The position numbers and the translations under genes are program-made. Under the pieces are notes generated by a model that was not told the origin of the DNA, searched no databases, and was given only the letters and a program-made list of their open reading frames with translations. Source: an uncultured Gammaproteobacteria bacterium (lineage in GTDB: Bacteria > Pseudomonadota > Gammaproteobacteria > Steroidobacterales > Steroidobacteraceae). From it: 64,000 nucleotides of DNA. The stretch spans positions 4,972 through 68,971 of the forward strand of contig CAVQQX010000085.1 in the NCBI GenBank assembly GCA_963714645.1, given 5' to 3'. Positions 5,451-42,670 of the stretch are shown one piece after another. Position 1 is the first letter of the stretch. Every line of letters begins with the position of its first letter.

Positions 5451-5487
5451 GCAGCTCAGTCCGGGACGTGGGCGGGCGTGGAACCCG

Positions 5488-6039: not shown

Positions 6040-6055
6040 GGCGGGTTCCGTCCGG

Positions 6056-6592
6056 TCATTCGTGGCGCAGGTCTTCGATGCGTCGCGCGAGATCGGCCGC
6101 GTCGACGGCGGTGCCCGACCACGACGCGCGCACGGCGCCGTCGCGGTCGATCAGCAGGGTGAGCGGGAGCTTGTCGACGTCGTATGCGCGTGCCACGGCC
6201 TGGCGCGAATCGACGAGCGTGGGGTAGCGAAGTCGGAGCGAGCCCGCCACCGAGGCTGCGCGCTCGGCGGTGGTGTCGAGGTTGACGCCCAAGGTCGGGG
6301 CCGACGTGCGGCGGGCGACCCCGTCGAGCGCCACGAGTGTCTCGCGACACAGCCCGCACCAGCTGCCCCAGAACATCACGACGACGGGCTCGCCGCGGTA
6401 CTCGGACAGGCGGTGGTTGTGGCCGTCGACGGCCTTCAGCGCGAAATCGGGTGCCGTCGTCGACTGCGGCGGCGGGGCGGCTGCAGCGACGCCCGCGCAG
6501 GCGAGCGCGCACGCCGCGGCAAGCGCGGTGAGCGCGGCGAGCGAGCGGTGGCCCTCCGCCGGGGCACGGTGTCCTGCAGTCCTGCGTTGCAC
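6056..6592 (-). CDS. TlpA-family periplasmic thiol:disulfide oxidoreductase
   Basis: Thioredoxin-fold motif VVVMFWGSWCGLCRE, with a preceding signal-like segment SLAALTALAAACALACAGVAAA. The start is uncertain: I chose GTG 6592, and no ATG is available in a sensible position. Confidence 0.8.
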   Translation of the reverse strand: MQRRTAGHRAPAEGHRSLAALTALAAACALACAGVAAAAPPPQSTTAPDFALKAVDGHNHRLSEYRGEPVVVMFWGSWCGLCRETLVALDGVARRTSAPTLGVNLDTTAERAASVAGSLRLRYPTLVDSRQAVARAYDVDKLPLTLLIDRDGAVRASWSGTAVDAADLARRIEDLRHE

Positions 6593-6906
6593 GCTGGCAA
6601 CCCCGCTGTCATGGGAGAAGTCCCGAAGACCGGTGGCTTTGCGTCCCCGTCTTTCGACGGGTTTGCCTTTTTCAGTCGCATCGCTTGCGCCGATCGCGAC
6701 CGTCCGGACGCCAACGTATCGCGTCGTGGCGTTCCGCACACGGGCAGTGGGTCACAAAACAGGGCGCGGGTTGCCGAATTCACTTATTGCACCCGCCCCG
6801 AGGGACGCGCCCGGCACCGGGTCGATGCCACCCGCGTCGCTCACCCGCGCGAGCAGGCGATCTCCATCATCTGACCACACGCTCCAGGCCGCAGGACGTA
6901 GCGCCG

Positions 6907-7872
6907 TCAGCGTGCGGCCGCGAACCCCGCGGAATGGAACACGCGGCCGTTGCGGTCGACGATCACGGCCTCGACGTCCTCGAGCCCCCGGATGAACGCG
7001 AGTCCCCGCTCCACCCCCAGAATGAACACCGTCTTGGTGAGGCCGTCGGTGCGCGTTGCATTGGGTCCGACGACGGTGACGCTGTGCACCGCATCCGGCG
7101 AGCGGCCGGTGCCGGGCTCGAGGATGTGGTGGTAGCGGATCCCGTCGTGTTCGAAGTAGCGTTCGTAGTCGCCGGAGGTGGAGATGGCCTCGTCGGCGAG
7201 CGGGATCCGCGCGACGACGCGCCCGGGATCGCGCGGGTCCTGCACGCCGACGACCCACGGCTGCCCGCGGCGATCACCGAGAAAGGCCGTGTCGCCGCCC
7301 GCGTTCACCATGCCGTGGCACACCCCGTGGCGGCGCAGGATCTCGACGCCGCGGTCGACGGCCCAGCCCTTCGCGATGCCGCCCAGGTCGATGCGCATGC
7401 CCGGACGGAGGAAGCGTATGGTGCACGCCTCGCGGTCGACGGCGACCTGCCGATAATCGACGCCCGGGAGATGGGCCTCGATCTGCGCCGCGCTCGGGTG
7501 GACCTGGCGCCGGTAGTCGTAGAGGTAGCCGACGCTTGCATAAGTGATGTCGAACGCGCCGCCGCCGAGTGCCGAGTACTCGAGCGCGGTCGTTACCACG
7601 TCGATGATGTCCGGATCGACCTGCACGGGTCGTTCGGCCGCGTGCGCATTGACCTGTGAGAGTTGGCTCCAGGGCTTGTACGTGCTCATCAGTTCGTCGG
7701 TGCGATGCATGTCGGCCATGACCGCCTCGATTGCGCGGTGCGCCGTCTGTGCGTCGGCCCAGGCCTGCACCGCGATGCGCGTGCCCATGATCGCCTCCTC
7801 GCGCTCGTGCCAGGCCGCGCCGTCTGACGGCGGGGCGACGTGGCTCGGGTCGACCGGCATCTCGTTACTCAT
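6907..7872 (-). CDS. apbE: FAD:protein FMN transferase (ApbE family), no recognisable signal peptide
   Basis: ApbE-like hallmarks: IMGTRIAV at the start of the mature domain, DLGGIAKGWAVD, VNAGGD, STSGDYERYF. The N-terminal 28 aa (MSNEMPVDPSHVAPPSDGAAWHEREEAI) are hydrophilic. ATGA overlap with the upstream methyltransferase stop at 7869-7872. Confidence 0.9.
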   Translation of the reverse strand: MSNEMPVDPSHVAPPSDGAAWHEREEAIMGTRIAVQAWADAQTAHRAIEAVMADMHRTDELMSTYKPWSQLSQVNAHAAERPVQVDPDIIDVVTTALEYSALGGGAFDITYASVGYLYDYRRQVHPSAAQIEAHLPGVDYRQVAVDREACTIRFLRPGMRIDLGGIAKGWAVDRGVEILRRHGVCHGMVNAGGDTAFLGDRRGQPWVVGVQDPRDPGRVVARIPLADEAISTSGDYERYFEHDGIRYHHILEPGTGRSPDAVHSVTVVGPNATRTDGLTKTVFILGVERGLAFIRGLEDVEAVIVDRNGRVFHSAGFAAAR

Positions 7873-9236
7873 TCCTTGCCGGGCTGCGCCGCCTCGTCGA
7901 CGAGCCGCGCCACGTAGTCGCGCACGATCCCGCCCGCTTCGTCGGGCAGCAGCAGTCGCTCCTCGACGAGCCGTGCCGCAATCGCGTCGATCGACCGGCG
8001 CCCGTCGACGAGCGATGCCACGTAACCCTCCACCCGCAGCGCGAGCGTCCGCTGGGCCACGTCGTCCGTCAGCGGCACCGGCAGCCGCGGATCCTCGAGC
8101 CAGGCAGGCATTTCAGCGCGGCGCTGCGGCACGCTGGCCACACGCTCCACCGCAAACGTGACGACCTGCTCGTGGCGAGCATGGCGGCTCGCGGGCGACG
8201 CGAGGTACGGCACGACGCGCTCGTCGAAATCGGGTGCGGTGAATCCGGCCTCGGCGACCACCTGCGCAGCCTCCTCCGTGGCGTACGCTCGCGCGGCATC
8301 GCGCGATTCGAAGTACAGCGTGCCGGTGCAGATCCACCGGCCACCCGGGCGCAGCAGCGCATTGACGATCGACGCGAGCACGGCGAGGTCGGCGTCGACC
8401 ACGTCGACGAGCCACGGAGTGACGACCGTGTCGAACCGGCCGGGCGCGAACGGCGGTTGCCTCACGTCGGCGAAGACTACGGCAAGGCCTGGGCGGGCCG
8501 GTGCCGGCGCGGACAGTGTCCGCAACAACGCATGGCTCGCGAGGTCGCGCGGTGCCACCGGGAATTCGTAGAGCTCGAGCCGTTCCCCTGCGTACAGGCG
8601 GCGGGCGACGAACAGGAGCAGGGGGTTCACGTCGACCGCAACCGTCGTCGACGCCCCGGCGTGCTCGTGCAGGTCGTAGGCGAGCCGCCCCGCTCCTGCG
8701 CCGAGCACGAGTGTCGTGCCCGGCGCCGCTTCGCCCAGGGCACGCCGGACTGCGTGCAGCGTCGCCTCGTTCTCGGCGCTGCCCCAGCACCAGTCGCGAT
8801 GGATGTTCGCGTAGTAGCCGGCGAGGTTCCCTCCCGGCGCCGCCGCTGCACCGAGCGCCGCGTAGGTCGCGACGTGCGCCGACGCATCGCCGGCGCCGAG
8901 GGGGGCCAGCAGCGCACGCAGCCGGCGCGCATGGTCGTCGCATGCGTGCGCCAGCAGCTTGAGTCGATTGCGCGTGAGTGTGCGGCCGCAGCTCGCCAGG
9001 GCCGACCGGTAGCCGGCGGCCTGCCGGTCGAGGTGCTGCAGCAGCAGTCTCTGCCGGGCACGCCAGGTCTCGAGTGCGCGCTCAGGCTCGGGCAGCAGCC
9101 AGGGAATGTGGTCGACGCAGGGGTACGCGTCGTCGCACGCGGCGCAAGCCAGGCAACCCGCCGCGGCGACGAGCCCGCCGGCGCAGCGGGGACAGCGCAG
9201 GAACGAGAGGAAGTCGCTGGCGGGCGTCGTGCTCAA
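7869..9236 (-). CDS. class I SAM-dependent methyltransferase with N-terminal Trm112-like zinc-ribbon
   Basis: C-terminal part of ORF 7869..10034(-). It has a CPRC...CLAC...C zinc-ribbon segment followed by HIPWLL. The SAM motif reads TLVLGAGAGRLAYDL...AVDVNP. TTG 9236 was chosen as the start because it lies 12 nt after the stop of the upstream gene. The start is uncertain. Confidence 0.72.
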   Translation of the reverse strand: MSTTPASDFLSFLRCPRCAGGLVAAAGCLACAACDDAYPCVDHIPWLLPEPERALETWRARQRLLLQHLDRQAAGYRSALASCGRTLTRNRLKLLAHACDDHARRLRALLAPLGAGDASAHVATYAALGAAAAPGGNLAGYYANIHRDWCWGSAENEATLHAVRRALGEAAPGTTLVLGAGAGRLAYDLHEHAGASTTVAVDVNPLLLFVARRLYAGERLELYEFPVAPRDLASHALLRTLSAPAPARPGLAVVFADVRQPPFAPGRFDTVVTPWLVDVVDADLAVLASIVNALLRPGGRWICTGTLYFESRDAARAYATEEAAQVVAEAGFTAPDFDERVVPYLASPASRHARHEQVVTFAVERVASVPQRRAEMPAWLEDPRLPVPLTDDVAQRTLALRVEGYVASLVDGRRSIDAIAARLVEERLLLPDEAGGIVRDYVARLVDEAAQPGKE

Positions 9237-9247: not shown

Positions 9248-10882
9248 TTAGCCGATCTGGCCGCTCACGATGGGATCGAAGGCGATCAGGCTGTCCTGCA
9301 GGGTGGCGTTGCCGAGCCCGTGCCGCGGGAATTTCGCCGCGAACTGTCCGTGTTCGCCATGCAACGCCATGTAGTTGAGCACCACCGTCTCGACCAGCAG
9401 GTTGACGTTGTTGGCCGCGGGGCTCGAGGCCGTCTCGACCGACGCGTCCGCGCGGAAGTAGCCGATCTGCTGGTGTCGCGCGGTGCCGCCGGCGCCCGTC
9501 GACACGAGGCTCGCCCGCCCGCCCGGATTGTAGACCAGGAAGAACGACGCGGCGGTCGACTGGTTGTCGCTGGTCCACATGAACTTGCCGCGGCCCTCGG
9601 GGGAGGTGTCGACCTGCCCGCTCGCCGAGATCGACCCGTCCGAAAACACGTAGAGCATCAGCGGCAGACCACGCCGCGCGGCGTACTCGAGGCACGCACC
9701 CATGCAGCGGCCCGCGCGCAGATCGCGCAGCTCCCCGGTCGAACGCCCCTGCCCATGGTAGTCGTAGCCGCCCATCGTGATCGTGCCGGCGCCGGCGTAG
9801 CCCGACAGCACCATCTTCATCACGGCCGCAGTCTTGCGGAACTCGTCGTCCGAGTCGTATTCGGCGCGGCTGAAGACGCCGCCGGCACCGACGATGTCGG
9901 GATCGAGCTCGGGATCCAGGCTCGCCGGGTCGCCGAACCGGTCGACGACGTCGGCCGCCTTGACGTAGCCGCAGCTCACGAGTTCCTTCACCACCTCGTT
10001 GCGCGTGACGGAAGTCTGCTGGGGATCGGCCCACGGCTGCTTGGGATCGATCACCGCGATCTTGCGGTCGCTGATGCGCTGGATCGCCTCCATCACCGCG
10101 ACGGTGTCGTCGAGACTCAGCAGCGACGCGAGCTGGCCGGTGTCGACCAGGCCCGTGACGTCGCTTGCGCGGTCGACCTTGGTGGGTCGGACCGACAGGT
10201 CGATCATGCCGGCCGGCGCCATCGAGTTGCCGCCGGAGTCCGAAGCGCGCGAGCCGACCAGCGTCGCGAGGGAGCCGTCGGCTCCCGCGGTGTGGATACC
10301 GTACATCGGGTTGTGCGGGTTGTTGCCGGTGTCGTTCTCGGAGCGCGCGGCAATCACTGCGCCGTTGACCGCGGCCGCCGTCGCCGGCGCGACGCGATCG
10401 AGGATTCCGCGCAGGAACGCACTGTCGCTGTGGAACGCGAGCCCGAGCCGCGTGTCGGTGAAGCTCGCGCCGGTGGTCGGGTTCGTCATGCCCGGCAGCA
10501 TGTCGCCCGGCAGTCCGAGCTTCCCGTAGCCGGCCGTCGACAGGAAGTCGAGCTGCCCGCCCGGTCCACCGATCAGCACGTTCGACCCCACCATGTTGGC
10601 GCCGCCGGCGAGGTCGATGCAGATGAAGGGGATCTTGCCGGCGCCGAGCACGTCGATGCCGCAGCTCGCCTTGAGCGCCTGGATGTCAGGCGAGAGTGCG
10701 GCCATGGCCGCACGCGGGTCGGCGAACAGGCTGAACACCGTGGGCGCCACGACGGTCGCGAGGCCGGACGTGAGTCCCTGGGAGATGAAGTCGCGCCGGG
10801 TGACCGGGCGCTTGTGCGCCTGCTCGTGCCGGATCGGTTCGTCCAGGCGCAGCGTTCGCGGGGCGGGTTTTCGGATCAGCAT
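9248..10882 (-). CDS. Tat-signal exported protein, DUF1501/DUF1552-like (unknown function)
   Basis: ATG 10882 is preceded by GGAGGA. Twin-arginine motif VTRRDFISQGL is followed by a hydrophobic stretch. Segments ICIDLAGGANMVGSN and TMGGYDYHGQG resemble the Tat-exported partner proteins of the 'planctomycete cytochrome c' families. Contains NPTTGAS (10463-10483). Confidence 0.78.
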   Translation of the reverse strand: MLIRKPAPRTLRLDEPIRHEQAHKRPVTRRDFISQGLTSGLATVVAPTVFSLFADPRAAMAALSPDIQALKASCGIDVLGAGKIPFICIDLAGGANMVGSNVLIGGPGGQLDFLSTAGYGKLGLPGDMLPGMTNPTTGASFTDTRLGLAFHSDSAFLRGILDRVAPATAAAVNGAVIAARSENDTGNNPHNPMYGIHTAGADGSLATLVGSRASDSGGNSMAPAGMIDLSVRPTKVDRASDVTGLVDTGQLASLLSLDDTVAVMEAIQRISDRKIAVIDPKQPWADPQQTSVTRNEVVKELVSCGYVKAADVVDRFGDPASLDPELDPDIVGAGGVFSRAEYDSDDEFRKTAAVMKMVLSGYAGAGTITMGGYDYHGQGRSTGELRDLRAGRCMGACLEYAARRGLPLMLYVFSDGSISASGQVDTSPEGRGKFMWTSDNQSTAASFFLVYNPGGRASLVSTGAGGTARHQQIGYFRADASVETASSPAANNVNLLVETVVLNYMALHGEHGQFAAKFPRHGLGNATLQDSLIAFDPIVSGQIG

Positions 10883-10910
10883 GTGCGTCGTTCCTCCGGC
10901 TGCCGGTGCC

Positions 10911-13364
10911 TCACTGCACCAGCGTCGCGGCGCTGCCGAGCAGCGCGGCGCAACTGGCCTTGACGATGGTCTCGGTGCGGTCGGCCGCACAGGCATTGCC
11001 GCAGCTCGCGAGCCGCGTGATCAGCTGGTCGAGGTCGGAGCGCACGCCGGCCGCGGCGGGCTCGGTGCCGACGTTGCTGCTGAGCATCCGCCCGACCAGC
11101 GCATCGAGCACGATGTCGCGGCCGGCCGGGGCGAAGGCGGTGGCCGGGCTCGCGCCGAAGTCGAACCCCGGGAAGTACTGCGCACGCGCCGTCGTGTTCT
11201 CGACCAGTGCGTTGCAGTACTGGATCGAGAGCTGCGCGACCGCGACCGGGTGCGCCGAGACGAACGTGTCGATCTTCTCGACCGTGGGCAGCGACTGCTT
11301 GATCGTCGCGTACGTCGACGCGACTGCCGGCGCGGTGGTGGCGATGCCGGTGAGCTCGGACATCGTCGCGTTCAGCTCGTCGAACACGCGCAGGCCCACG
11401 TCCGCGGGACGCGGCACGTCCGCCGGCGGTGCCGGCGCCAGCGGCACCGGATCGAGCCGGACGTTGGTGTGCGTGCCCAGGCGGTCGAAGGTCAGGAAGA
11501 ACTCGTCGGCCTCGGGGCCCTGCTCGAGCGCGATGACCGTGCCGACCGTCGCGAGCGGCTGCCCGAGCGGCCCGTAGTTCGAATCGCTGACCGTCGTGTC
11601 GAGCGTGCGGTAGGCCTGGCCGACGTCGGCCTCCTCGCCGTTGACGCCGATGCGCATGCCGGCGATCGGGATCGATCCCGGCCTGGCGTTCGGGTCGAGG
11701 CTGATGAACGTCGGCTGCTCGAACAGGTAGCTGTACGAGTCGAACTGGCTCACCTCGAACAGGATGTACGCCCGCGGCACGTCCACCAGGTGGCTCACGG
11801 AGAACAGCAGGTAGAACTTCTCGCCGACGCCGGCCTGGAAGTTGGTCTGGATCTGCGGATCGGTGAGCGCCCGGTTGTAGACCGCGACCAGCCGGAACAC
11901 GCCCTGGAACTGCCGGTCGCCCGACACCTCGTTGCCGAGCACGAAGGCGAACGTGTCGTCCCAGTCGGCGATCGTGCCGCCGGCGCCCGGGTCCGCGTCG
12001 CCCGTGTACTCGCCGTTCACGTGGATCCGGCGGCCGCGGATCGGGTCGAAGGTGACGATGACGTGCTGCAGCGTGGCCTGCAGGTCCTCGTCCGCCGCGG
12101 CCGTGGCCAGCTTCGGGTCGCCGTTCTGGTTGGTGAGGCTCGACCGGTTGAAGAAGTCGTAGCTGTAGAGCGTCTGCCCCAGCGTGAAGTTGCGCGCAGT
12201 CGTGCCGCCGGAGTACGAGACGATGCGCGAGTCTTCCTGCGCCACGTTGCCAGGTGCCACCCACGCCTCGATCGTGTATTCGCCCGTCGCCTGGATCAGG
12301 TCGTGCAGCTTGCGGCTCGCCGTCGTGGAGCCCTGCGCCTTGCCGCTTCGCACGTTGATGCCCCAGCCCCCGACCCACTGCACGTCGCCCGAGAGGTTGA
12401 GGTTGAGCGCGGGCTCGATGCCGCTGGTGTCGTAGGCGACGGTGCCGCTGCCCGTCTTGAATTCCCAGAGGCCCACGAGGCTGCCGGAGTAGCGGTTGCC
12501 CCCGCTCGCGACGATGCCGTCGGGCAGCAGCAGCGCCTTGGACGCCACGAGCGAGGGATCGACCTCCGCGAGCGGCACCTGGTTCGCGAACGCGAGGATC
12601 GCGTTCTCCATCGTCGTCGCGTTCGCCGCGCAGTCGCTCCAGCAGTTGTGGAACTCGGTGCGCAGGCGCACGACCAGCCGCGAGAGCGAAGGCTGGTCGA
12701 GGTTGATCTTGACCTTCGCCGCCGCGTACGCCTCGGCGAGGTCGCTCGAGGCGAAGAACGGCGACTGCGACGCAGCCGCCGTCGCGGTGTGGCAGCGCGA
12801 GCAGTATTGCGTGAGCAGCGGATGGACCGTCGAGCCGAAGAGGGCCGGCGCATCCGGGAACGACTTGCTGCCGCCCGGATCCTTGAGCACGGGGTCCTCG
12901 AGCGCGATACCCTGGCCCCCGCCGGCCGTCGCGCCGGCCCACGCTGAGATCCAGGTGGTGAGGATGTCGGCGCAGGCGTCGTTGCTCGCGAGCCAGCAGT
13001 TGTGGCCGCCGCCGACCTTCTGGACCATGCGGGAATCGCGGGGCGAGGCGAGGTCGACGATCGGGTTGGCCGCAGCGTAGGCCAGATTGACGTCATCCAG
13101 GCGCACGAACTCGGGGGACTGCTCGCCCGCGACGTGGCACTGGCCGCAACGGTTGGTGGCCTTGAGGTTGTCCCAGACGTTGATCTTGAATGCCTGCACG
13201 TCGGCGGTCGCCGGCGCCGGGCCGTTGTACGTCGGCGGCGCCCCGCCCGACGTGGCCGGGTTCTCGACGGTCTTGGCGCCGCCTCCGCACGCCGTGAGCA
13301 ACGTGCAGAGCGCGGCGAGCGCGGCGGCGCGAAGCGACCAGGAGCCTGCCTTGGTGTTGTCCAT
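10911..13364 (-). CDS. lipoprotein with two CxxCH motifs and a LamG/concanavalin-like domain (817 aa)
   Basis: Lipobox LLTAC. CxxCH motifs CGQCH and CSRCH sit in two similar N-terminal modules. The central region (LWEFKTGSGTVAYDTSG ... YTIEAWV ... HVIVTFD ... RIHVNGEY ... FRLVAVYNRALT) reads like a LamG jelly roll. The C-terminal domain is uncharacterised. Confidence 0.8.
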   Translation of the reverse strand: MDNTKAGSWSLRAAALAALCTLLTACGGGAKTVENPATSGGAPPTYNGPAPATADVQAFKINVWDNLKATNRCGQCHVAGEQSPEFVRLDDVNLAYAAANPIVDLASPRDSRMVQKVGGGHNCWLASNDACADILTTWISAWAGATAGGGQGIALEDPVLKDPGGSKSFPDAPALFGSTVHPLLTQYCSRCHTATAAASQSPFFASSDLAEAYAAAKVKINLDQPSLSRLVVRLRTEFHNCWSDCAANATTMENAILAFANQVPLAEVDPSLVASKALLLPDGIVASGGNRYSGSLVGLWEFKTGSGTVAYDTSGIEPALNLNLSGDVQWVGGWGINVRSGKAQGSTTASRKLHDLIQATGEYTIEAWVAPGNVAQEDSRIVSYSGGTTARNFTLGQTLYSYDFFNRSSLTNQNGDPKLATAAADEDLQATLQHVIVTFDPIRGRRIHVNGEYTGDADPGAGGTIADWDDTFAFVLGNEVSGDRQFQGVFRLVAVYNRALTDPQIQTNFQAGVGEKFYLLFSVSHLVDVPRAYILFEVSQFDSYSYLFEQPTFISLDPNARPGSIPIAGMRIGVNGEEADVGQAYRTLDTTVSDSNYGPLGQPLATVGTVIALEQGPEADEFFLTFDRLGTHTNVRLDPVPLAPAPPADVPRPADVGLRVFDELNATMSELTGIATTAPAVASTYATIKQSLPTVEKIDTFVSAHPVAVAQLSIQYCNALVENTTARAQYFPGFDFGASPATAFAPAGRDIVLDALVGRMLSSNVGTEPAAAGVRSDLDQLITRLASCGNACAADRTETIVKASCAALLGSAATLVQ

Positions 13365-13379
13365 GTGCGTGCTGCCCCC

Positions 13380-14576
13380 TCAGTCGCCCATGCAGTAGGT
13401 GGCCGCCTCGGCGAACACCTGCTTGAGCTTGAAACCGCCTGCCTTGAAGTCCGCGGTCATGGCCTGGACGCGCGCGCGGTCCTGCGCGTCGCTCGGGGCC
13501 CGCAAGCAGACGTTGCGGAAGACCTTCTGCACCTGGCAGGACGCGAACGCGTCGCTGTGCGCGAGCTCGCGGCCGAGCGATTTCGCGCCGGCGCCCTGTG
13601 CGGGCAGGGATTCGTCCCAGCCGAGCAGCGAGTTGCGGCCGTGCCGCCAGCGGTTTTCCCAGCGATCGTCCGGCGTCGAGAAGCCGGCCGGGAACGTGTC
13701 CTTGTTGTTGAAGTACTTCGGGCGCACGACGCCCGGGGTGTACTGCAGGCGCCCGGTGGCCTCGTCGTAGTCGTAGTAGGCGAACGCCTGTGCCATCGGG
13801 TCCATGCCCGAATGGCAGGCGATGCAGTTGTTCAGGAACACGCGGCTGTCGCCGCCGGGGCTGCGGCTCACGTCCTGGCGGATCCTGTCGGGCGGACGCG
13901 TCGGGTCCTGCACCTGCTCGAGGTCGGTGCAGAGATGGTTCACGAGCGTGAAGCGGAACATCGCGCGGTTGGTGCCGGCCACGAAGAACGCCTGGGCCGC
14001 GGCGCGTGTCGTCAGCACGCCGGCCGTGGCCTCCGGCGCCAGGCCGTAGGCCGCGGACTGCGTGGTCCGCACCAGGTCGTTCTTCAGGTTGACTCCCTGC
14101 GTCTCGAGCGCGGCGAAGTGGTCGTTGGTCGAGGCGGAGGGGCCGGGAACCCCGCCGAGGCCGCCGCGTCCGGTGTAGAGGATGTCGTCGGACAACACCG
14201 TGTCGAACGACACGTCGTCGCGCACCATGCCGATCACCGTCGCCACGTAGTCGTTGAGCGGCGCGAACACCGTCTGGTCGCGGTTGGTCCACGGCATCGC
14301 GAAGTTCTTGAGCGTCACGTCGTAGAACGCGCGGTGCTGCATGGCCGTATACGCCGCGTCGGTCGCGCGCCCGGCGGCGATGTCCGTCGCCATCGAATCG
14401 AGCACCGCGGCGGTGGGCGGCACGCCGGCGAGCCGGTCGTGGAGGCGCTTCGCCTGCGAGCGCGCATCGGCAAGCGCGATCGCCGGCTGCAGGGCGAGCA
14501 GGCATGCGAGCGCGGCGGCCAGCCAGCCGCGCGAGGCGCCCGATCCCGATCCGCCCGTCGTCCACGTCCGCTGCAT
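13380..14576 (-). CDS. exported protein with one CxxCH motif (PSD/DUF1585-1588-like, unknown function)
   Basis: ATG 14576 is preceded by GGGAGGG. Signal peptide WLAAALACLLALQPAIALADA. Motif FLNNCIACHSGMDPM. First gene of the leftward operon. Confidence 0.8.
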   Translation of the reverse strand: MQRTWTTGGSGSGASRGWLAAALACLLALQPAIALADARSQAKRLHDRLAGVPPTAAVLDSMATDIAAGRATDAAYTAMQHRAFYDVTLKNFAMPWTNRDQTVFAPLNDYVATVIGMVRDDVSFDTVLSDDILYTGRGGLGGVPGPSASTNDHFAALETQGVNLKNDLVRTTQSAAYGLAPEATAGVLTTRAAAQAFFVAGTNRAMFRFTLVNHLCTDLEQVQDPTRPPDRIRQDVSRSPGGDSRVFLNNCIACHSGMDPMAQAFAYYDYDEATGRLQYTPGVVRPKYFNNKDTFPAGFSTPDDRWENRWRHGRNSLLGWDESLPAQGAGAKSLGRELAHSDAFASCQVQKVFRNVCLRAPSDAQDRARVQAMTADFKAGGFKLKQVFAEAATYCMGD

Positions 14577-14613
14577 GCGTGCACCCTCCCGGCGGAAGTA
14601 CCGCCGTGGTGCA

Positions 14614-14638
14614 GCAATCTGCGGGTCTTGCGGATTGC
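14614..14638. promoter_or_regulatory. inverted repeat in divergent promoter region
   Basis: GCAATCTGC-gggtctt-GCGGATTGC. The arms match at 8 of 9 positions. Confidence 0.3.
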
Positions 14639-14656
14639 AGCCAAGCCGGCTTCGTG

Positions 14657-14680
14657 GTTGTGAGAGGCGCCTCACACAAC
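14657..14680. promoter_or_regulatory. 24-bp near-perfect palindrome (candidate operator) in divergent promoter region
   Basis: GTTGTGAGAGGC|GCCTCACACAAC pairs at 11 of 12 positions with no spacer. It is flanked by outer inverted arms GGCTTCGT (14648-14655) and ACGAAGCC (14693-14700). Confidence 0.4.
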
Positions 14681-14766
14681 TCGTGCCCCGCAACGAAGCC
14701 GCGGCTTGGTTATGCGAGAAAGTGCGCCTGCGGCCGCCCGTGTCGGCATGGCCGAGAGGAAGAACG

Positions 14767-17424
14767 ATGCGCGCAGGTTACGCGAACCCGTGGAGGCGGT
14801 GCGCCACATTCGTGCGCACGGGCACGCTGTCGCTGCTCGTCGGAGCCGGCGTCGTCGCGTGCACCAGCGGCGAAGGCGACGGTGCGGGACCCGGCGGCGG
14901 ACAGTCGCCGGACCCGGTCGTGCTCGACTTCCCGATCGCATACGTGAAGCGCCCGGTGCCGACCGGCGCGGCGCTCGCGCCCGACGCGCGCGAGCTGCTC
15001 GACTTCGAGCCCGGCGCGGACCTGTGGATCCGCGACCGTGCGTCGCCCTCGGCCGCCGAACGCAACGTCACCGGCCCGGTCACACTGGGCCTCGGCGACG
15101 TACGCGACGTCGAGCCGTCCTACGACGGCACGAAGGTCGTCTTCGCGCTGCACGAGCCCGGGATCGAGGGTGCTCCACCCGAGGAGCAACCTACGTGGGA
15201 CATCTGGGAGTACGACCTCGGCGCGCAGGAACTGCGCCGCCTGATCCCCTCGGACACGACCGCGCGCGAGGGTGACGACGTCGCACCGCACTACCTGCCG
15301 GACGGCCGCGTCGTGTTCTCCTCGACCCGCCAGCGCCAGTCGAAGGCGATCCTGCTCGACGAGGGTAAGCCTCAATTCGCTGCGCTCGACGAGAACGGAA
15401 ACGAACCGGGATTCGTGCTGCACGTCATGAATGCCGACGGCTCCGACGTACACCAGATCTCGTTCAACCAGAGCCACGACCTGGATCCGGCGGTGCTGCC
15501 GGACGGGCGTATCGTCTTCAGCCGCTGGGACGCCGCACCGGGTCACGACGAAATCAGTCTCTACGCGATGCGTCCGGACGGCACGGACCTCGAGCTGCTG
15601 TACGGTGTCAGGAGCCACGCGACCGGGACCGACGGCAGCGACGTGCAGTTCCTCGACCCGCGCCCGATGTCGGACGGTAACGTGCTGGTGCGCGCGCAAC
15701 CGTTCGAGGCACCCGACCTCGGCGGGCAACTGCTCGCGATCGACACCACGAACTACGTCGAGATCGCGCAGCCGACGCTCCCCAATGCGGGCGCGCTCGC
15801 GGGCCCGGCGCAGCTCGCTGCAACGGTCAACGAAGTCCGCACGATCGAGGGCCCCTCACCCGGCGGCCGTTACAACTCGGCCTACCCGCTGCAGGACGGC
15901 ACGGGGCGGTTGCTCCTCACGTGGACCCAGTGCCGGTTGCTCGAACAGTCGTCGTCCTCATCGACCGCGCGGATCGTGCCTTGCACCGACGACGCCCTCG
16001 CGACCGGCACCGCGGCATCGGCGCCGCCGCTCTACGGCATCTGGATCTACGACCCCGCGCAGGAGACGCAGCTGCCGGTGTCGTCGCCGGTCGAAGGACG
16101 ACTGGTCACGGACGTGGTGGCCTTGCAGCCGCGTGCGCTGCCGCCGGTGCTGCTCGATCGCGTGGCCGGCGTCGACTTCGACGCCGAGCTGGCCGAACAG
16201 GGTGTCGGCCTGCTCGATATCCGGAGCGTGTACGACATCGCCGGCGTGGACACCGCGCCGGGCGGCCTCGTGCCCTTGCGTGACCCGGCGCTGACGCTCG
16301 CGGCACAGCGACCGGCGCGGTTCGTGCGGCTGGAGAAACCCGTCAGTATCCCCGACGACGAGGTGCGCGAATTCGACGGCAGCGCCTTCGGCGTGACTTC
16401 GGCGTTCGGGATGCGCGAGATCCTCGGGTATGCGCCGGTCGAGCCGGACGGCTCCGTGCGCATCAAGGTGCCCGCGGACGTCGCGTTCGCGATCACCGTG
16501 CTCGATGCGGACGGGCGACGCATCGGCGCACGCCACGACAACTGGCTGCAGGTACGCGCGGGCCAGGAACTCGAATGCAACGGTTGCCACGTCGCGACCC
16601 GCGACGACTCCCACGGTCGCAGCAACCTGTTCGCCTCCGCCAACCCGGGCGCACCGGGCACCGGTACGCCGTTTCCGCACACGGACCCCGCGCTGTTCGC
16701 CGACCTGGGCGAGACGATGGCGCAGGTGCGCTCGCGCGTGAGCTGCCAGACCGACTGTGCGGCCCTACTGCCCTCGACGGCCGTCGTGTTCGAGGACGTC
16801 TGGACCGATCCGGCGACGGCAGGCCGAGCCGCGGACGCAAGCTTCGAGTACTCGTACCTCGACCTGGACACGCCCGCCCCCACCTCGACCGACTGCGTCA
16901 CGACATGGCGCGCCGGGTGTCGCATCACGATCCACTACGAGCAACACCTGCACCCGCTCTGGTCCAAACCGCGCGTCACGCTCGCGATGGACGGCTCGGT
17001 GCTGCAGGACGACACCTGTACCCGTTGCCACACGGCGCGCGCCGCGGACGGCACGACGCAGCTGCCGGCCGGCCAGCTGGAGCTCACCGACGGCCCGTCG
17101 GCCGACGAACCCGACCATTTCCACGCCTATCGCGAACTGCTCGCGACGGACGCCGAGCAGGAAGTCGTGGACGGCGTGCTGCAGGACCGGCTGGTGCAGG
17201 TCGGCACCGACCCCGTGACCGGTGCACCGCAGTTCGTGACCGTGCCGGTCGCGCCGTCGCTCGCCGCGGGCAGCGCCGCCGCGAGCGTGACGTTCTTCTC
17301 ATTGTTCGCACCCGGCGGCTCGCACGCGGGGCGGCTGACGCCCGCAGAGTTGAAGCTCGTCTCAGAATGGGTGGACATCGGGGCTCAATACTTCAACGAC
17401 CCGTTTGCCGCGCCGGTTCCGTGA
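14767..17424 (+). CDS. lipoprotein with TolB/PD40-like beta-propeller and C-terminal region carrying two CxxCH motifs (HzsA-related-like, 885 aa)
   Basis: ATG 14767 lies inside ORF 14341..17424. Lipobox GVVAC. Propeller-like repeats include DGTKVVFAL, DGRVVFSSTR, MNADGSDVHQISF, DGRIVFSRWD and MRPDGTDLELLY. Motifs LECNGCHV and CTRCHTA are present. Confidence 0.8.
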   Translation: MRAGYANPWRRCATFVRTGTLSLLVGAGVVACTSGEGDGAGPGGGQSPDPVVLDFPIAYVKRPVPTGAALAPDARELLDFEPGADLWIRDRASPSAAERNVTGPVTLGLGDVRDVEPSYDGTKVVFALHEPGIEGAPPEEQPTWDIWEYDLGAQELRRLIPSDTTAREGDDVAPHYLPDGRVVFSSTRQRQSKAILLDEGKPQFAALDENGNEPGFVLHVMNADGSDVHQISFNQSHDLDPAVLPDGRIVFSRWDAAPGHDEISLYAMRPDGTDLELLYGVRSHATGTDGSDVQFLDPRPMSDGNVLVRAQPFEAPDLGGQLLAIDTTNYVEIAQPTLPNAGALAGPAQLAATVNEVRTIEGPSPGGRYNSAYPLQDGTGRLLLTWTQCRLLEQSSSSSTARIVPCTDDALATGTAASAPPLYGIWIYDPAQETQLPVSSPVEGRLVTDVVALQPRALPPVLLDRVAGVDFDAELAEQGVGLLDIRSVYDIAGVDTAPGGLVPLRDPALTLAAQRPARFVRLEKPVSIPDDEVREFDGSAFGVTSAFGMREILGYAPVEPDGSVRIKVPADVAFAITVLDADGRRIGARHDNWLQVRAGQELECNGCHVATRDDSHGRSNLFASANPGAPGTGTPFPHTDPALFADLGETMAQVRSRVSCQTDCAALLPSTAVVFEDVWTDPATAGRAADASFEYSYLDLDTPAPTSTDCVTTWRAGCRITIHYEQHLHPLWSKPRVTLAMDGSVLQDDTCTRCHTARAADGTTQLPAGQLELTDGPSADEPDHFHAYRELLATDAEQEVVDGVLQDRLVQVGTDPVTGAPQFVTVPVAPSLAAGSAAASVTFFSLFAPGGSHAGRLTPAELKLVSEWVDIGAQYFNDPFAAPVP

Positions 17425-17431
17425 GCCACTG

Positions 17432-18178
17432 ATGCTGCGACCCCTGCTGGTCCTCTGCGCCGCGCTCGGCGGCGTGCTCCTGGCGCCCGTCGCGTCGGCG
17501 ACGCGCGCGCCCGCGAGCGTCGTGATCCAGGACGCCTTTGCCGATCTGCACACCGGGCCGGGGCGCGGCTTTCCCGTGGCCTACTCGGTCGAACGCAGTG
17601 CGACGATCCAGCTGCTGCGCCAGCGCACCGACTGGATCAAGGTCCGCACTGCCGGCGGTCGCGAGGGCTGGGTGCACCGCAACCAGCTCGAGCGGACGCT
17701 GACGCCCGGTGGCCGGGAAGTGCGGGTCGCCGGCCCCCGCCCCGAGGCGCGCACCGACCACCGATGGGAGGCAGGCCTCGCCACGGGCGACTTCGGCGGC
17801 GCGAACGTCGTGAGCGTCGGCGGCACCTTCCTGCTGACGCCGAGCCTGGTCGTGCGAGCGGACGCGAGCCACCTGCTCGGCGACTATTCCAATGGCTGGC
17901 TCGGCGCGGTCGGGATCGCGCATGTCTTCGTTCCGCAATGGCGCGTATCGCCGTTCGCGGGCATCGGTGGCGGCGTGCTCTCGATCTCGCCGAAGGCGAC
18001 GCTGATCCAGGCCGGGGACCGCACCGATTCCATCGCGTATGCCGGGCTCGGACTGCGCGGCTTCCTGACCAACCGCTTCCTGCTGCAGGCGGAATACCGC
18101 AGCTACGTCGTGTTCACGAGCCGCGACGAGAACGAGGAGATCGACGAATGGACCGTGGGCTTCACGTACTTCTTCTGA
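17432..18178 (+). CDS. exported SH3-like domain fused to an outer-membrane beta-barrel
   Basis: ATG 17432 lies 7 nt after the upstream stop. Signal peptide MLRPLLVLCAALGGVLLAPVASA. SH3_3-like segment (LHTGPGRGFPVAY...DWIKVRTAGGREGWVHRNQL). Alternating beta-strand region ending in the aromatic terminus TVGFTYFF. Confidence 0.72.
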   Translation: MLRPLLVLCAALGGVLLAPVASATRAPASVVIQDAFADLHTGPGRGFPVAYSVERSATIQLLRQRTDWIKVRTAGGREGWVHRNQLERTLTPGGREVRVAGPRPEARTDHRWEAGLATGDFGGANVVSVGGTFLLTPSLVVRADASHLLGDYSNGWLGAVGIAHVFVPQWRVSPFAGIGGGVLSISPKATLIQAGDRTDSIAYAGLGLRGFLTNRFLLQAEYRSYVVFTSRDENEEIDEWTVGFTYFF

Positions 18179-18816
18179 GCACCGTCGCGGCGCTCGCCTG
18201 GCCGGCGGCCGGTTCCGCGCAGTCGCGCGCAGGCGAGTCGGCCGTGCTCCCGTCGCAGCAGCCGCAGGTCGTGGAACCGGCGCTCCGGCGTCGCGACATC
18301 GAGCGGGCGGACATCGACACCGAGAATTTCGAGACCGGCCTCTTCGTCGGCACGATCAGCATCGAGGATTTCGGCTCGAGCGTCGCCTACGGCGGCCGGC
18401 TCGCCTATCACTTCACCGAAGACCTGTTCGCCGAGGCGACGTTCGCGACGTCCAAGGCCGGCAGGACCAGTTACGAGGACCTGAGCGGCGCCGCGCAGCT
18501 TCTCACCGACAGCGAGCGCCGGTACACCTATTACGACCTCGCGGTCGGCTGGAACGTGCTGCCCGGTGAGGTGTTCCTCGGCGGCCGGCGCGCGCTGCCG
18601 AGTTCGGTCTACGTCACGCTGGGCGCGGGCAGCACGCGCTTCGCGGGCGACGACCACTTCACCGTCGCAGCGGGCGCCGGCCTGCGCCTGCTCGTCACGG
18701 ACTGGCTGGCGCTGCACCTCGACGTGCGCGACCACATGTTCGACAGCGACCTGCTGGGCGAGCAGAAGCTCACCCAGAACCTGCAGGTCGGCCTCGGCCT
18801 GACGGCCTTCTTCTGA
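18148..18816 (+). CDS. outer-membrane beta-barrel domain protein
   Basis: ATG 18148 lies inside ORF 17764..18816. Signal peptide LLLSTVAALAWPAAGSA. Alternating strands and a C-terminal GLGLTAFF. Overlaps the previous gene by 31 nt. Confidence 0.7.
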   Translation: MDRGLHVLLLSTVAALAWPAAGSAQSRAGESAVLPSQQPQVVEPALRRRDIERADIDTENFETGLFVGTISIEDFGSSVAYGGRLAYHFTEDLFAEATFATSKAGRTSYEDLSGAAQLLTDSERRYTYYDLAVGWNVLPGEVFLGGRRALPSSVYVTLGAGSTRFAGDDHFTVAAGAGLRLLVTDWLALHLDVRDHMFDSDLLGEQKLTQNLQVGLGLTAFF

Positions 18817-18827: not shown

Positions 18828-19322
18828 ATGCCATCCCGCCCGGTCCTCGCCTTCCTGTTGCTCGTGTCCGGTGCCGCTGCAGCCGTCGCCAGCGCCGCGC
18901 CGGGCGGTGCTGCTCCCGACTTCACGCTCGCGGCGCGCGACGGCAGCAAGGTACGCCTCGCCGACCTCAGGGGGCAGGTCGTCATGATCAATTTCTGGGC
19001 CAGCTGGTGCGGCCCGTGTCGCCAGGAGATGCCGCTGCTCGGGCAGTTGCAGGCGAAGTACGAGCCGCTCGGCTTCACGCTGCTCGGCGTCAACGTCGAG
19101 CCCGACAGCGCAGCGGCCGTCGCCTGGCTCAAGGGCGTGCCGGTGGCATTCCCGATCCTGTTCGACACGGACTCGAGCGTCGCGACCCGCTTCGGCGTCG
19201 AGGGCATGCCGAGCACGGTGTTCGTCGATCGCAACGGCCAGGTGCGCTATGTGCACCGCGGCTACAAGCCCGGTGACGAGGCGAAGTACGCGGACATGAT
19301 CCGCAGCCTGGTGAAGGAATGA
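18828..19322 (+). CDS. TlpA-family thiol:disulfide oxidoreductase (exported)
   Basis: Signal peptide, then VVMINFWASWCGPCRQEMP. The thioredoxin fold runs to the end of the protein. Confidence 0.87.
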   Translation: MPSRPVLAFLLLVSGAAAAVASAAPGGAAPDFTLAARDGSKVRLADLRGQVVMINFWASWCGPCRQEMPLLGQLQAKYEPLGFTLLGVNVEPDSAAAVAWLKGVPVAFPILFDTDSSVATRFGVEGMPSTVFVDRNGQVRYVHRGYKPGDEAKYADMIRSLVKE

Positions 19323-19555
19323 ACGCCGCCCGCGCGACCCTCGCCTGCGTGCTCGCCGCGGCCGCGCTCGTGACGTCCGGCTGCAGCAGCGTCGAGCCCT
19401 GGGTGAAACCGTACGAACGGCAGAATTTTGCCGACATCATCATGGCCGCCGAGCGCGACCCGGTCGCGGCCGCATACCTGAACCACGTGTTCGAGGCGCG
19501 CGAGGGCGCGCGCGGCGCGACCGGCAGCCACGGCGGCGGCTGCGGCTGCAACTGA
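19319..19555 (+). CDS. DUF4266-like small lipoprotein
   Basis: 78 aa. Lipobox LVTSGC. The C-terminal GGGCGCN matches the conserved GCGC tail I associate with DUF4266. ATGA overlap with the TlpA stop. Confidence 0.78.
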   Translation: MNAARATLACVLAAAALVTSGCSSVEPWVKPYERQNFADIIMAAERDPVAAAYLNHVFEAREGARGATGSHGGGCGCN

Positions 19556-19567: not shown

Positions 19568-20713
19568 ATGTCGCACGGCAACCACCGCAGCGGCGCGCTG
19601 ACGACGCTCGCAGGCACTCTGGTCACGGGCGTTTCGCAGGGCGCGGTGCTGCCCGACGACCGTGCGGACGCGATGTACCACAGCTACGACGGCGGCGGCG
19701 TGCAGATCGACGGCCCGTCGCTGCTCGTGCGCAAGAAATTCGCCGAGAAGTATTCCGCCTCGGCCAACTTCTACATGGACATGGTCTCGAGCGCGTCGAT
19801 CGACGTGGTGTCGACCGCGAGCCCGTACCAGGAAGAGCGCACGCAGGGCACCGTCTCGTTCGACGTGCTGCAGGGCAAGACGCAGTACAGCCTCAGCTAC
19901 ACGCTGAGCGACGAAAGCGACTACACCGCGAACACGGCGAGCTTCGACGTGAGCCAGGACCTCTTCGGCGACCTGACGACGGTGTCCTTCGGGTTCAGCC
20001 AGGGCTGGGACGAAGTGGGCAAGCGCGGCGACGACGAATTCCAGGAAGACGTGGACCGGCGCAACTACCGCGTGAGCCTCTCGCAGATCCTGACCCCGGC
20101 GCTGATGGCCGGCGTCAACTACGAAGTGATCACGGACGAAGGGTTGCTCAACAACCCGTACCGCTCCGTGCGTTACGTCGACGAGTCGAGCCCGCGAGGT
20201 TACGCGTACCAGGCAGAGCTCTACCCGCGCACGCGGACCAGCAACGCCGTGGGCGTGACGGCGCGCTACTTCCTGCCCTGGCGCGCGTCGGTGCACGGCG
20301 AGTACCGCTTCTACTCGGACACCTGGGGCATCGGTGCGAACACCGTCGCGGCCGGCTACTCGCATCCGTGGGGCGAGCGCTGGATCTTCGAGGCCGGCGT
20401 GCGCTGGTACGACCAGTCCGCCGCCGACTTCTACTCCGACCTGTTCCCGCGCGCCGACGCCCAGAACTTCCTCGCGCGCGACAAGGAGTTGAGCACGTTT
20501 TCGAACCTGATGCTGAGCCTCGGCGCGACCTACGAACTGCCGCCGCTCGGCTGGGACCGGCTGAAGCGCACGACCGTCAACGTCTACTTCGACCGCATCC
20601 GCTACGAGTACGACGACTTCCGCGACGTCACCCACGGGGGTGCGCCGGGCGCCGAGCCGCTCTACGGCTTCGACGCGAACGTCTTCCGGGTCTTCTTCTC
20701 GGGCTGGTTCTAA
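19568..20713 (+). CDS. DUF3570-like protein (predicted beta-barrel)
   Basis: 381 aa with alternating aromatic/polar strands and terminal FFSGWF. It has the typical genomic partnership with DUF4266, thioredoxin-like and ApbE genes. No obvious N-terminal signal is seen in this frame. Confidence 0.75.
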   Translation: MSHGNHRSGALTTLAGTLVTGVSQGAVLPDDRADAMYHSYDGGGVQIDGPSLLVRKKFAEKYSASANFYMDMVSSASIDVVSTASPYQEERTQGTVSFDVLQGKTQYSLSYTLSDESDYTANTASFDVSQDLFGDLTTVSFGFSQGWDEVGKRGDDEFQEDVDRRNYRVSLSQILTPALMAGVNYEVITDEGLLNNPYRSVRYVDESSPRGYAYQAELYPRTRTSNAVGVTARYFLPWRASVHGEYRFYSDTWGIGANTVAAGYSHPWGERWIFEAGVRWYDQSAADFYSDLFPRADAQNFLARDKELSTFSNLMLSLGATYELPPLGWDRLKRTTVNVYFDRIRYEYDDFRDVTHGGAPGAEPLYGFDANVFRVFFSGWF

Positions 20714-21681: not shown

Positions 21682-21700
21682 GCAAGGATTCCCGGTCGTC

Positions 21701-23215: not shown

Positions 23216-23219
23216 CTCG

Positions 23220-24329: not shown

Positions 24330-24424
24330 CCACGCATGGTAACAAACCGGTCAGCCGGGCCCCGGCTGAACCATGGATCCTTGCGCGCGGCGCTGCATGA
24401 AGGCTCGCTGAAGAATCGTCAGAC

Positions 24425-39567: not shown

Positions 39568-39571
39568 CCGT

Positions 39572-42503: not shown

Positions 42504-42597
42504 GTTCGCTGGTTCTTCTGCCCGCCGGAATCGTTATAGCTCAGGCCACAGCGCTTTGGATAGCGGGATCGGGACGGGCAACGAGCCGGCGCCTGCC

Positions 42598-42636: not shown

Positions 42637-42670
42637 GCGGCTCATGTGCGTCCCGGGATCGGGTGGCGAG

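Follow-up and report, generated by a model that had tools for sequence, protein, structure and literature searches.

A conserved head-to-head gene cluster of Gammaproteobacteria combining c-type cytochromes, a Tat-exported protein without a family and a flavin/thiol module

In a 64-kb stretch of DNA (~70% GC) from contig CAVQQX010000085.1 of an uncultured member of the Steroidobacteraceae, which in its whole length we call the window, two operons face each other across a 190-bp spacer (14577..14766) and encode four exported proteins that we name A, B, C and D. The minus strand carries C (13380..14576), a Sec-exported monoheme protein of 398 amino acids (aa), B (10911..13364), an 817-aa lipoprotein built as a fusion of three parts, and A (9248..10882), a 544-aa protein exported by the twin-arginine translocation (Tat) pathway and belonging to no Pfam or NCBIfam family, C and B being 15 bp apart and B and A 28 bp. 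The plus strand carries D (14767..17424), an 885-aa lipoprotein built like the alpha subunit of hydrazine synthase (HzsA). A preliminary description of the window had singled out these four open reading frames (ORFs), and all are present with a strong coding signature (GC of 0.87-0.95 at third versus 0.51-0.54 at second codon positions). All four look exported, C by a Sec-type leader, as it had read, and translation confirmed the lipoboxes LLTAC (B) and GVVAC (D), the VTRRDF of A and its five CxxCH heme motifs spread over three proteins: CIACH in C (13812..13826, minus strand), CGQCH (13134..13148) and CSRCH (12789..12803) in B (minus strand), CNGCH (16576..16590) and CTRCH (17017..17031) in D (plus strand). 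By our own estimate from typical Cys and His frequencies, ~0.004 such motifs would be expected in the ~2,100 residues concerned, and the occurrence of five is far beyond chance. Yet the four genes are not the unit that the preliminary description took them for: they belong to a bigger gammaproteobacterial cluster of some 13 genes, which is strongly conserved and has six genes in the plus-strand arm (D to a DUF3570 gene) and seven to nine in the minus-strand arm (C to tetratricopeptide repeat (TPR) proteins).

Relatives of the locus were collected by scanning one genome per GTDB species with an alignment of the A family as query, which gave 585 confirmed relatives, the best 80 loci being kept; 14 proteins of the window were then compared with all related loci by tblastn, and counts were made only over loci with enough flanking sequence. 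The four genes proved syntenic in this survey of orthologue neighbourhoods, C and B being found at the expected place in 69/69 loci and D in 64/64. The same constancy is seen for an SH3-barrel protein and a second outer-membrane barrel of the TIGR04565 family (63 of 64 loci each), a TlpA-like thioredoxin (TlpA2, 58/62), a DUF4266 lipoprotein (59/61) and the DUF3570 protein (53/61), which with C, B and D make up the constant part of the cluster. The variable part lies entirely downstream of A and comprises a methyltransferase (18/68), the flavin transferase ApbE (21/63), a 183-aa protein and a TPR protein. Metagenome-assembled genomes carrying the cluster are labelled Steroidobacteraceae (the window's own lineage), Woeseiaceae, Kangiellaceae, Chromatiaceae, Sedimenticola and Colwellia, and isolates belong to Lentisalinibacter, Paraglaciecola, Alteromonas, Shewanella maritima, S. 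algicola, S. phaeophyticola, Microbulbifer, Ningiella and Agaribacter. In orthologue alignments drawn from 82 related loci (62-69 orthologues, 38-82% identity overall), every Cys and His of the five CxxCH motifs is conserved at 100%, and so are the lipobox cysteines C26 of B and C32 of D. One divergent context was noticed in L001 (GCA_041320355.1, a 5.9-Mb contig; 3307..6313), where an A identical in sequence to that of L002 lies in a second setting in which only half of D is detectable and gene calling places a TonB-dependent receptor and a TetR gene upstream of C. Either D was truncated by a rearrangement or the assembly is chimeric here.

Of all proteins in the set, A is the best conserved (63-90% identity across orders), and its start at 10882, rather than at an upstream ATG at 10996, is backed by the N-termini of its orthologues. 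More than 8,000 homologues were matched in a database clustered at 90%, the best 120 of them being 85-92% identical and nearly all exactly 544 aa long, and a library clustered at 50% holds 1,356 A-family clusters at E<=1e-3. In NCBI, an 87%-identical homologue (P0105) goes under the name 'general secretion pathway protein GspF'; the annotation looks erroneous, since none of the scans showed A to be similar to GspF-type membrane proteins. Scans of the Pfam and NCBIfam libraries, used throughout this work, assigned no family to A or to 59 diverse relatives, bar Tat-signal models in six, and sequence and profile searches of the PDB with A found nothing. The resemblance to DUF1501/DUF1552 proteins that had been proposed for A is undetectable with hidden Markov models (HMMs), neither PF07394 (DUF1501) nor PF07586 (DUF1552) matching any of 60 A-family members at E<=1; its basis is a weak fold signal and the gene context, C lying upstream of A in all loci. 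R29/R30 are invariant, as for a Tat-exported partner of a cytochrome.

A 60-sequence alignment reaching down to ~30% identity shows invariant H23, R29, R30, G93, G94, D184, D374, H376, D415, G416, D439 and Q472, H376 lying within a GGYDYH motif (9755..9772), and D/E90, D374 and H376 are conserved in the family. Structures were compared by running AlphaFold models through Foldseek against the PDB. The model of A (AF2, on the family alignment) is confident, with a predicted local distance difference test score (pLDDT) of 85.8, and all of its top 50 matches belong to the alkaline-phosphatase superfamily, including sulfatases, alkaline phosphatases, cofactor-independent phosphoglycerate mutase, LtaS and ENPP, the best at E=0.017 and with TM-scores of ~0.2. 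The model is weakly compatible with an alkaline-phosphatase-like alpha/beta core, and we take a metalloenzyme as a lead and not as a classification.

The n-region of A's Tat leader, DEPIRHEQAHKRPVTRR (10793..10843, minus strand), is itself conserved. The family pattern reads D/N-x-P-L/I-x-H-x-x-H-x-R-P-x-T/S-R-R, with H23, R29 and R30 invariant family-wide and P26 invariant in a 13-sequence subset (A2); it is kept in 80 orthologues and can be recognized in relatives at ~30% identity, an unusual feature in a Tat n-region. Directly behind A lies a gene that the four-gene core had missed, encoding a 455-aa S-adenosylmethionine (SAM) methyltransferase (7869..9236, minus strand) with a TTG start 11 bp after the stop of A, and cytoplasmic because it has no signal peptide. 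It consists of an N-terminal Trm112-like zinc ribbon, a CARNMT1-like catalytic domain with a GAGAG motif (within 8688..8714) and a C-terminal domain (7872..8114) resembling PqqD, i.e., the precursor-recognition element (RRE) of enzymes making ribosomally synthesized and post-translationally modified peptides (RiPPs). Pfam matched Trm112p and, at 27.0 bits, exactly the cut-off, CARME (PF07942), a family also listed for nearly all of the 120 best homologues, which carry generic names. With the family profile, the best PDB match was human CARNMT1 (5yf0, E=1.2e-12), with the yeast enzyme (5x62) next and 2kpi matching the zinc ribbon. PqqD (PF05402) is the only match shared by the C-terminal domains (last ~80 residues), in 19/20 sequences; the best score, E=1e-5 and 25.3 bits against a cut-off of 23.4, came from the L083 orthologue, the protein of the window itself reaching 13 bits (E=0.12).

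Three methyltransferase homologues (42-47% identity), chosen for their long contigs, all lie directly after A in clusters with D and C-B-A. In two low-GC distant clusters (L084, 3753..5778; L091, 3775..5142) the enzyme lacks the N-terminal Cys-rich zinc ribbon, which is therefore an optional addition; that of L084 adjoins the gene of the lipoprotein signal peptidase LspA. We infer that the PqqD-like domain docks on the leader of A and that A is methylated before export, A being the only component to fold in the cytoplasm because it is the only one exported by Tat. No short ORF that could encode a precursor peptide for the RRE-like domain is evident in the gaps on either side of A (28 and 11 bp). 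A 45-aa gene called between B and A in L087 (7983..8120), which would matter if such a precursor existed, is probably spurious, since the B-A gap of the window measures just 28 bp.

The cytochromes next to A are only distantly related to described families. C itself scores below threshold with PSD2 (21.6 bits, cut-off 25.8) and PSCyt3 (14.6 bits), and among 18 orthologues PSD2 was matched in 15 (best 7e-6) and PSCyt3 in 13, in the collinear order found in planctomycete-type cytochromes. The N-terminal domains PSD3, PSD4 and PSD5 were found neither in C nor in its orthologues, and a PDB search with C returned just a heme-motif match to cytochrome c6 (E=0.35). C would accordingly read as a remote relative of the C-terminal, PSCyt3-PSD2 (DUF1588-DUF1585) half of such cytochromes. 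A link to the PSCyt/PSD families, which the preliminary description had brought up, can be upheld for C through its orthologues. B matches no PSCyt or PSD model. It begins with two heme modules of ~110 residues each (about residues 45-270; CGQCH...GGHNCW and CSRCH...EFHNCW, pattern CxxCH...H-N-C-W...C), which are tandem duplicates (hhalign 99.2%, E=1.7e-19) and each contain a 100% conserved histidine (H121 and H239) that could be the distal heme ligand. In its centre, the LamG-like domain that had been suspected is a clear Laminin_G_3 (residues 352-506, 11847..12311, minus strand; E=4e-20), and the C-terminal domain, which we call Bc (about residues 656-815, 10920..11399, minus strand), has no family match and occurs as a separate small lipoprotein in distant clusters. 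We rejected a homology between Bc and C, and one between the heme modules of B and the heme domains of D, as only the CxxCH region aligns.

The locus could also be read as a nutrient-scavenging hydrolase locus of the 'PSCyt + carbohydrate-binding module (CBM) + DUF1501/DUF1552 / sulfatase' type of Planctomycetes-Verrucomicrobia-Chlamydiae (PVC) bacteria, in which A, as a phospho- or sulfo-esterase, would act on a LamG-bound glycan, with the cytochromes as accessories (e.g., in sensing or in the maturation of A). The model of A matches just hydrolases of the alkaline-phosphatase/sulfatase superfamily, the LamG of B is of a carbohydrate-binding type, and many of the host genera are polysaccharide degraders. 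PSCyt genes with CBMs have moreover been described next to partner families of unknown function and sulfatases, a carbohydrate-related role being suggested (He et al., 2017, PMC5615132). Against this, A is 63-90% identical across orders, unlike hydrolases that have diversified with their substrates, five invariant hemes and a flavin/thiol module accompany it, and the cluster contains no glycoside hydrolases, SusC/D genes or transporters, so that we consider this explanation distinctly unlikely.

Three parts make up D: a beta-propeller, the HZS_alpha middle domain, which holds CNGCH, and a C-terminal heme domain, which holds CTRCH. The preliminary description had noted propeller repeats and a likeness to HzsA-related proteins, and each is borne out: PD40 scores 24 bits (cut-off 20.9) and HZS_alpha (PF18582) 49.9 bits (cut-off 26.6; E=4.7e-13), and the Kuenenia subunit 5c2v_A is matched in four collinear HMMER segments (profile E=2e-9). 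It is also the top Foldseek match, at E=9.5e-21 over 650 columns, followed by a generic propeller at 1.7e-8; the TM-scores of 0.31-0.35 are low because the model of D is of low confidence (pLDDT 54). Yet the equivalog NF052339 (hydrazine_alpha) scores only 45.7 bits, in the middle domain alone, against a cut-off of 800. In HzsA, heme alpha-I is ligated by Tyr591, His587 being diverted to a zinc ion, and heme alpha-II is bis-His ligated through His772 (PMC12758564). H853 of D (17323..17325), conserved at 100%, aligns with residue H745 of the 5c2v chain, i.e., with the distal ligand alpha-His772, whereas at the position of alpha-Tyr591 the CSGCH-YGS-Y of HzsA is replaced by CNGCH-VAT-R612 in D, an arginine that is not conserved among orthologues. 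The cluster contains no genes for beta or gamma hydrazine synthase subunits, no diheme protein of the cytochrome-c-peroxidase/MauG type and no second propeller, and the neighbours of D are C and the SH3/outer-membrane barrel protein. D is an HzsA-type cytochrome and not a hydrazine synthase, because Tyr591 is replaced, the beta-gamma genes are missing from the cluster and the equivalog score is 45.7 of 800. An enzyme converting nitrogen oxides, hydroxylamine or ammonium in the manner of hydrazine synthase is what the HZS_alpha domain, the top matches in sequence and fold and the His772 equivalent would favour at first sight; in view of the same three shortcomings, and with hosts that are mostly aerobic heterotrophs, we regard such an activity as extremely improbable. 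The locus is a warning against taking HZS_alpha matches in metagenomes as a sign of anammox potential.

Behind D, the plus-strand operon continues with a protein combining an SH3 domain and an outer-membrane beta-barrel (17405..18178; C-terminal signal ...YFF), the second barrel (TIGR04565, OMP_myx_plus; 18148..18816, E=2e-50, ending in ...AFF), a TlpA/ResA-like thioredoxin with WCGPC (18828..19322), a small DUF4266 lipoprotein (19319..19555, E=7e-21) whose end ...GGGCGCN holds a C-terminal CXC, and the DUF3570 protein (19568..20713, E=7e-39), a member of an ApbE substrate family. The corresponding ApbE (FAD:protein FMN transferase, where FAD and FMN are flavin adenine dinucleotide and flavin mononucleotide; 6907..7872, E=3e-80) is found on the minus strand, where it overlaps the stop of the methyltransferase by 4 bp, and is followed by another TlpA/ResA-like thioredoxin with WCGLC (6056..6739, with AhpC-TSA and Redoxin matches; these coordinates delimit the maximal ORF, the true start being probably later). 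The thioredoxin-like component of the window has a family match at E=2e-30. ApbE, DUF3570, a thioredoxin-like protein and DUF4266 with its C-terminal CXC form a described flavinylation-associated cluster whose function was stated to be uncertain, and a DUF3570 protein has been shown experimentally to be flavinylated by its ApbE at two [S/T]GA[S/T] motifs (Méheust et al., 2021, PMC8238504). The same study reports 316 clusters without DsbD and links some DUF3570 clusters to iron transport; a hydrazine synthase, HZS or LamG neighbour is not mentioned in its main text and part of its supplement. In the DUF3570 protein of the window, the motifs lie in tandem at the expected place, as DMVSSAS (SSAS, 19787..19798) and VVSTAS (STAS, 19811..19822), and are kept in 24/24 (SSAS) and 19/24 ((S/T)TAS) orthologues, whereas conserved motifs of the flavinylation type are absent from the other proteins of the locus; the C-terminus of DUF3570, ...SGWF, looks like an outer-membrane beta-signal. 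We considered a second target of ApbE among A, B, C and D and rejected it, DUF3570 alone having conserved motifs; the STAAS of A (residues 442-446) sits in a predicted strand and is conserved in just 62/80 orthologues. The claim that the system is undescribed thus stands for the combination, no description of the cluster having been found, and not for its ApbE/DUF3570/DUF4266/thioredoxin part, which that study already covers.

With three predicted outer-membrane barrels with aromatic C-terminal ends and two lipoprotein cytochromes with a non-Asp residue at +2, one may think of a conduit spanning the outer membrane, in which the lipoprotein cytochromes B and D, together with DUF3570 as a flavinylated barrel, would pass electrons to or from an external metal or mineral, a view to which the reported connection of some DUF3570 clusters with iron transport (PMC8238504) would add. 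However, just five hemes are spread over three proteins, with no multiheme wire, nothing points to surface exposure, and A and the methyltransferase would be left unexplained; we deem a conduit quite improbable.

The most distant loci reveal how the cluster is composed. In L083, L084 and L091, whose A proteins are 29-38% identical to that of the window, a C orthologue (37-42%), a Bc-like lipoprotein of 226-279 aa aligning to B residues 656-815, A and a methyltransferase orthologue (25-35%) occur together, and in L083 and L084 the 'CxxCH...HNCW' module of B is present on separate proteins; L086 shows a C-like protein (30% orthologue), 225 aa and A before its contig ends. Neither D nor the DUF3570 module was found in any of these four loci within the sequence available. 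From the distant loci and the contexts of the methyltransferase it follows that the ancestral unit is C, Bc, A and the methyltransferase, B being a fusion and D belonging to a second module outside this deep core. This raises the possibility that two independent systems, C-B-A(-methyltransferase) on one side and DUF3570/DUF4266/TlpA/ApbE, with D and the barrels as clients, on the other, merely share a conserved divergent promoter region. The occurrence of the first without the second in L083, L084 and L091 is what one would expect in this case, and so is the fact that DUF3570 clusters are widespread without such cytochromes (PMC8238504). Yet the head-to-head order is kept in 64/64 loci from several orders, and the arms are intertwined, ApbE and one TlpA being embedded in the C-B-A operon and not with DUF3570 and DUF4266, their presumed substrate and partner in the D operon. 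We therefore give this alternative a low probability, albeit a higher one than the hydrolase or the conduit.

The reading that we favour, tentatively and with slightly less than even confidence, is that the locus encodes one multi-component extracytoplasmic redox system made of two modules that are joined head-to-head in Gammaproteobacteria. The first, ancient module (minus strand) would comprise C, B with its two bis-His-type heme modules, its ligand-binding LamG domain and Bc, the Tat-exported, metalloenzyme-like A and the cytoplasmic CARNMT1-like methyltransferase with its peptide-binding PqqD-like domain; the second (plus strand, together with ApbE and TlpA of the minus strand) would comprise D, the two outer-membrane barrels and the set of TlpA, DUF4266 (CXC) and ApbE-flavinylated DUF3570. 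Thioredoxin-like and CXC proteins exchange electron pairs, c-type hemes carry single electrons, and FMN is a natural converter between the two. Reducing equivalents would enter as dithiols via the TlpA thioredoxins and DUF4266, the covalent FMN of DUF3570 would turn the two-electron into a one-electron currency, and electrons would then travel along D, B and C, by way of their five c-type hemes, to A, the putative catalytic, metal-dependent subunit, whose substrate might be held by the LamG domain of B at the inner face of the outer membrane. The system is placed there because of the three barrels with aromatic ends and the two lipoproteins with Gly/Thr at +2. From TlpA/DUF4266 via FMN-DUF3570 and the hemes of D, B and C to A is the simplest path that uses every conserved part. 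Ahead of Tat export, the methyltransferase would dock on the motif preceding the twin arginines in the leader of A and methylate A. The complete scenario, in which a leader-recognizing CARNMT1-like/PqqD enzyme methylates A in the cytoplasm, possibly on a histidine, and A then serves as terminal catalyst of a hitherto unrecognized thiol-FMN-heme chain with its anchor at the outer membrane, appears unlikely to us as it stands, at about the level of the two independent systems.

Several observations speak for one redox system of this kind. C-B-A faces D, the SH3-barrel protein, the second barrel, TlpA, DUF4266 and DUF3570 in 53-69 of 61-69 loci from several orders; the hemes are invariant and come with candidate distal histidines, and flavin motifs occur only in DUF3570; A, the most conserved component, has invariant Asp and His residues and fold matches in a superfamily of binuclear-metal enzymes; and the deep core recurs in L083, L084 and L091, with the methyltransferase after A and an invariant motif upstream of the two arginines. 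Other observations weigh against it. None of the components has a known substrate or activity, the alkaline-phosphatase link of A is weak (best Foldseek E=0.017), no HMM ties A to DUF1501 or DUF1552, and the model of D is of low confidence. The direction of electron flow is assumed by analogy with the usual reductive role of TlpA-type proteins, and a membrane electron donor of the DsbD/CcdA type is not encoded in the 64-kb window. Just 18/68 gammaproteobacterial loci have the methyltransferase adjacent, yet the leader motif of A is kept in all of them, and the first module exists without the second in L083, L084 and L091, so that the coupling of the modules could be lineage-specific or absent. 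The periplasmic, heme-dependent redox or substrate-processing machine imagined in the preliminary description thus retains its export signals, heme motifs and synteny, and loses its four-gene boundary and part of its novelty, and neither HMM nor structure searches gave a match that places the set in a characterized pathway.

The C/D spacer contains a near-perfect 22-bp palindrome, TTGTGTGAG-GCGC-CTCTCACAA (14658..14679), which occurs nowhere else in the window (chance expectation 0) and is accompanied by an additional CTCTCACA half-site nearby. It is conserved in the close relatives L001-L008 and L077 and not in more distant loci, and probably represents an operator for a regulator of both operons; a scan of the spacer for sigma-70 promoters found none. 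At its far end, the minus-strand operon continues with the 183-aa exported protein (5488..6039), which has no family match and is present in 30/58 loci at 51-90% identity, and with a co-occurring 632-aa TPR protein (3552..5450; 30/54 loci). Downstream of the latter, the window holds a 1,051-aa TPR/YbgF-like protein (397..3555, minus strand) and a further minus-strand piece (5..460); in the syntenic region of L002 (18338..21635), a TPR/YbgF-like protein is followed by a 122-aa protein, MotA/ExbB and ExbD, and the operon may extend into such a TonB/Tol-like energy-transducing set beyond the start of the window. On the other side, a 363-aa ORF without a Pfam match (20734..21825) separates DUF3570 from a polyphosphate kinase 2 gene (21701..23476, minus strand) with two matched PPK2 stretches (E=1e-120). 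Farther away (38818..50522, 23220..24350 and 55418..56326) lies a polyamine-catabolism neighbourhood that appears unrelated to the cluster. Its ATP-binding cassette (ABC) transporter genes, class-III aminotransferase, Peptidase_C26, glutamine-synthetase-like protein and DAO oxidase recall the Puu pathway, and agmatine deiminase and a CN-hydrolase are also encoded.

In the searchable literature we found neither a functional characterization of the DUF1501/DUF1552/DUF1553, PSCyt/PSD or HZS_alpha families nor a description of the cluster, and this holds for the joint occurrence of its parts at one site, for the A family, which Pfam lacks, and its conserved leader, for Bc and for the dedicated CARNMT1-like/PqqD-like methyltransferase. 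The parts themselves belong to recognized, uncharacterized groups, i.e., PSCyt/PSD proteins (PMC5615132), non-anammox HzsA homologues (PMC12758564) and the DUF3570 cluster (PMC8238504), and there is a substantial chance that the enzyme A and its methylation before export are new in kind. Three groups of 'known unknowns', the PSCyt-type cytochromes with their Tat partners, the non-anammox HzsA homologues and ApbE/DUF3570/DUF4266, meet here in one compact, conserved locus, which makes A, B, C and D a concrete candidate client of the flavinylation-module electron pathway and allows one to test whether a Tat substrate is methylated under the guidance of its leader. The cluster is present in cultivable and genetically tractable bacteria (Alteromonas, Shewanella maritima, S. 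algicola, Microbulbifer, Paraglaciecola). If A were indeed a methylated terminal catalyst, this would provide a first function for the DUF3570 flavinylation system and for PSCyt/DUF1501-like gene pairs.

Compared with known systems, the locus recalls the PSCyt/PSD and DUF1501/DUF1552 pairs of PVC bacteria (PMC5615132) in that a CxxCH heme protein stands beside a Tat-signal protein, often with Laminin_G_3. It differs from them in that A and 59 sampled relatives match neither DUF, C is devoid of PSD3, PSD4 and PSD5, Bc and a dedicated methyltransferase are added, and the system is single-copy and highly conserved instead of being expanded into large paralogous families. D shares with the alpha subunit of Kuenenia hydrazine synthase (5C2V) the propeller, the middle domain, the C-terminal heme domain, both CxxCH motifs and the equivalent of alpha-His772. 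Unlike that subunit, it has no Tyr591-type proximal ligand and no beta-gamma partner genes and is a lipoprotein in aerobic Gammaproteobacteria; its neighbourhood also differs from those of the non-anammox HzsA clades I-IV, which feature beta-gamma homologues, FG-GAP proteins and ABC binding proteins (Hägglund et al., 2025, PMC12758564). The methyltransferase, whose family profile finds its best PDB match in the histidine N-pi methyltransferase CARNMT1 (5YF0), is in contrast bacterial and extended by the Trm112-like zinc ribbon and the PqqD-like domain. RRE/PqqD domains of RiPP enzymes and Tat proofreading chaperones such as TorD, DmsD and NapD exemplify leader-guided action before export. The likeness lies in a peptide-binding domain fused to a modifying enzyme, with a candidate target that has a conserved N-terminal leader, whereas the putative substrate is here a 544-aa Tat enzyme and not a short peptide. 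Finally, all four components of the DUF3570 flavinylation cluster (PMC8238504) are present in the window, including the CXC of DUF4266 and two tandem motifs in DUF3570, yet these motifs read SSAS/STAS and not [S/T]GA[S/T], there is no DsbD nearby, and here an HzsA-like cytochrome, the C-B-A set and two outer-membrane barrels invariably go with the module.

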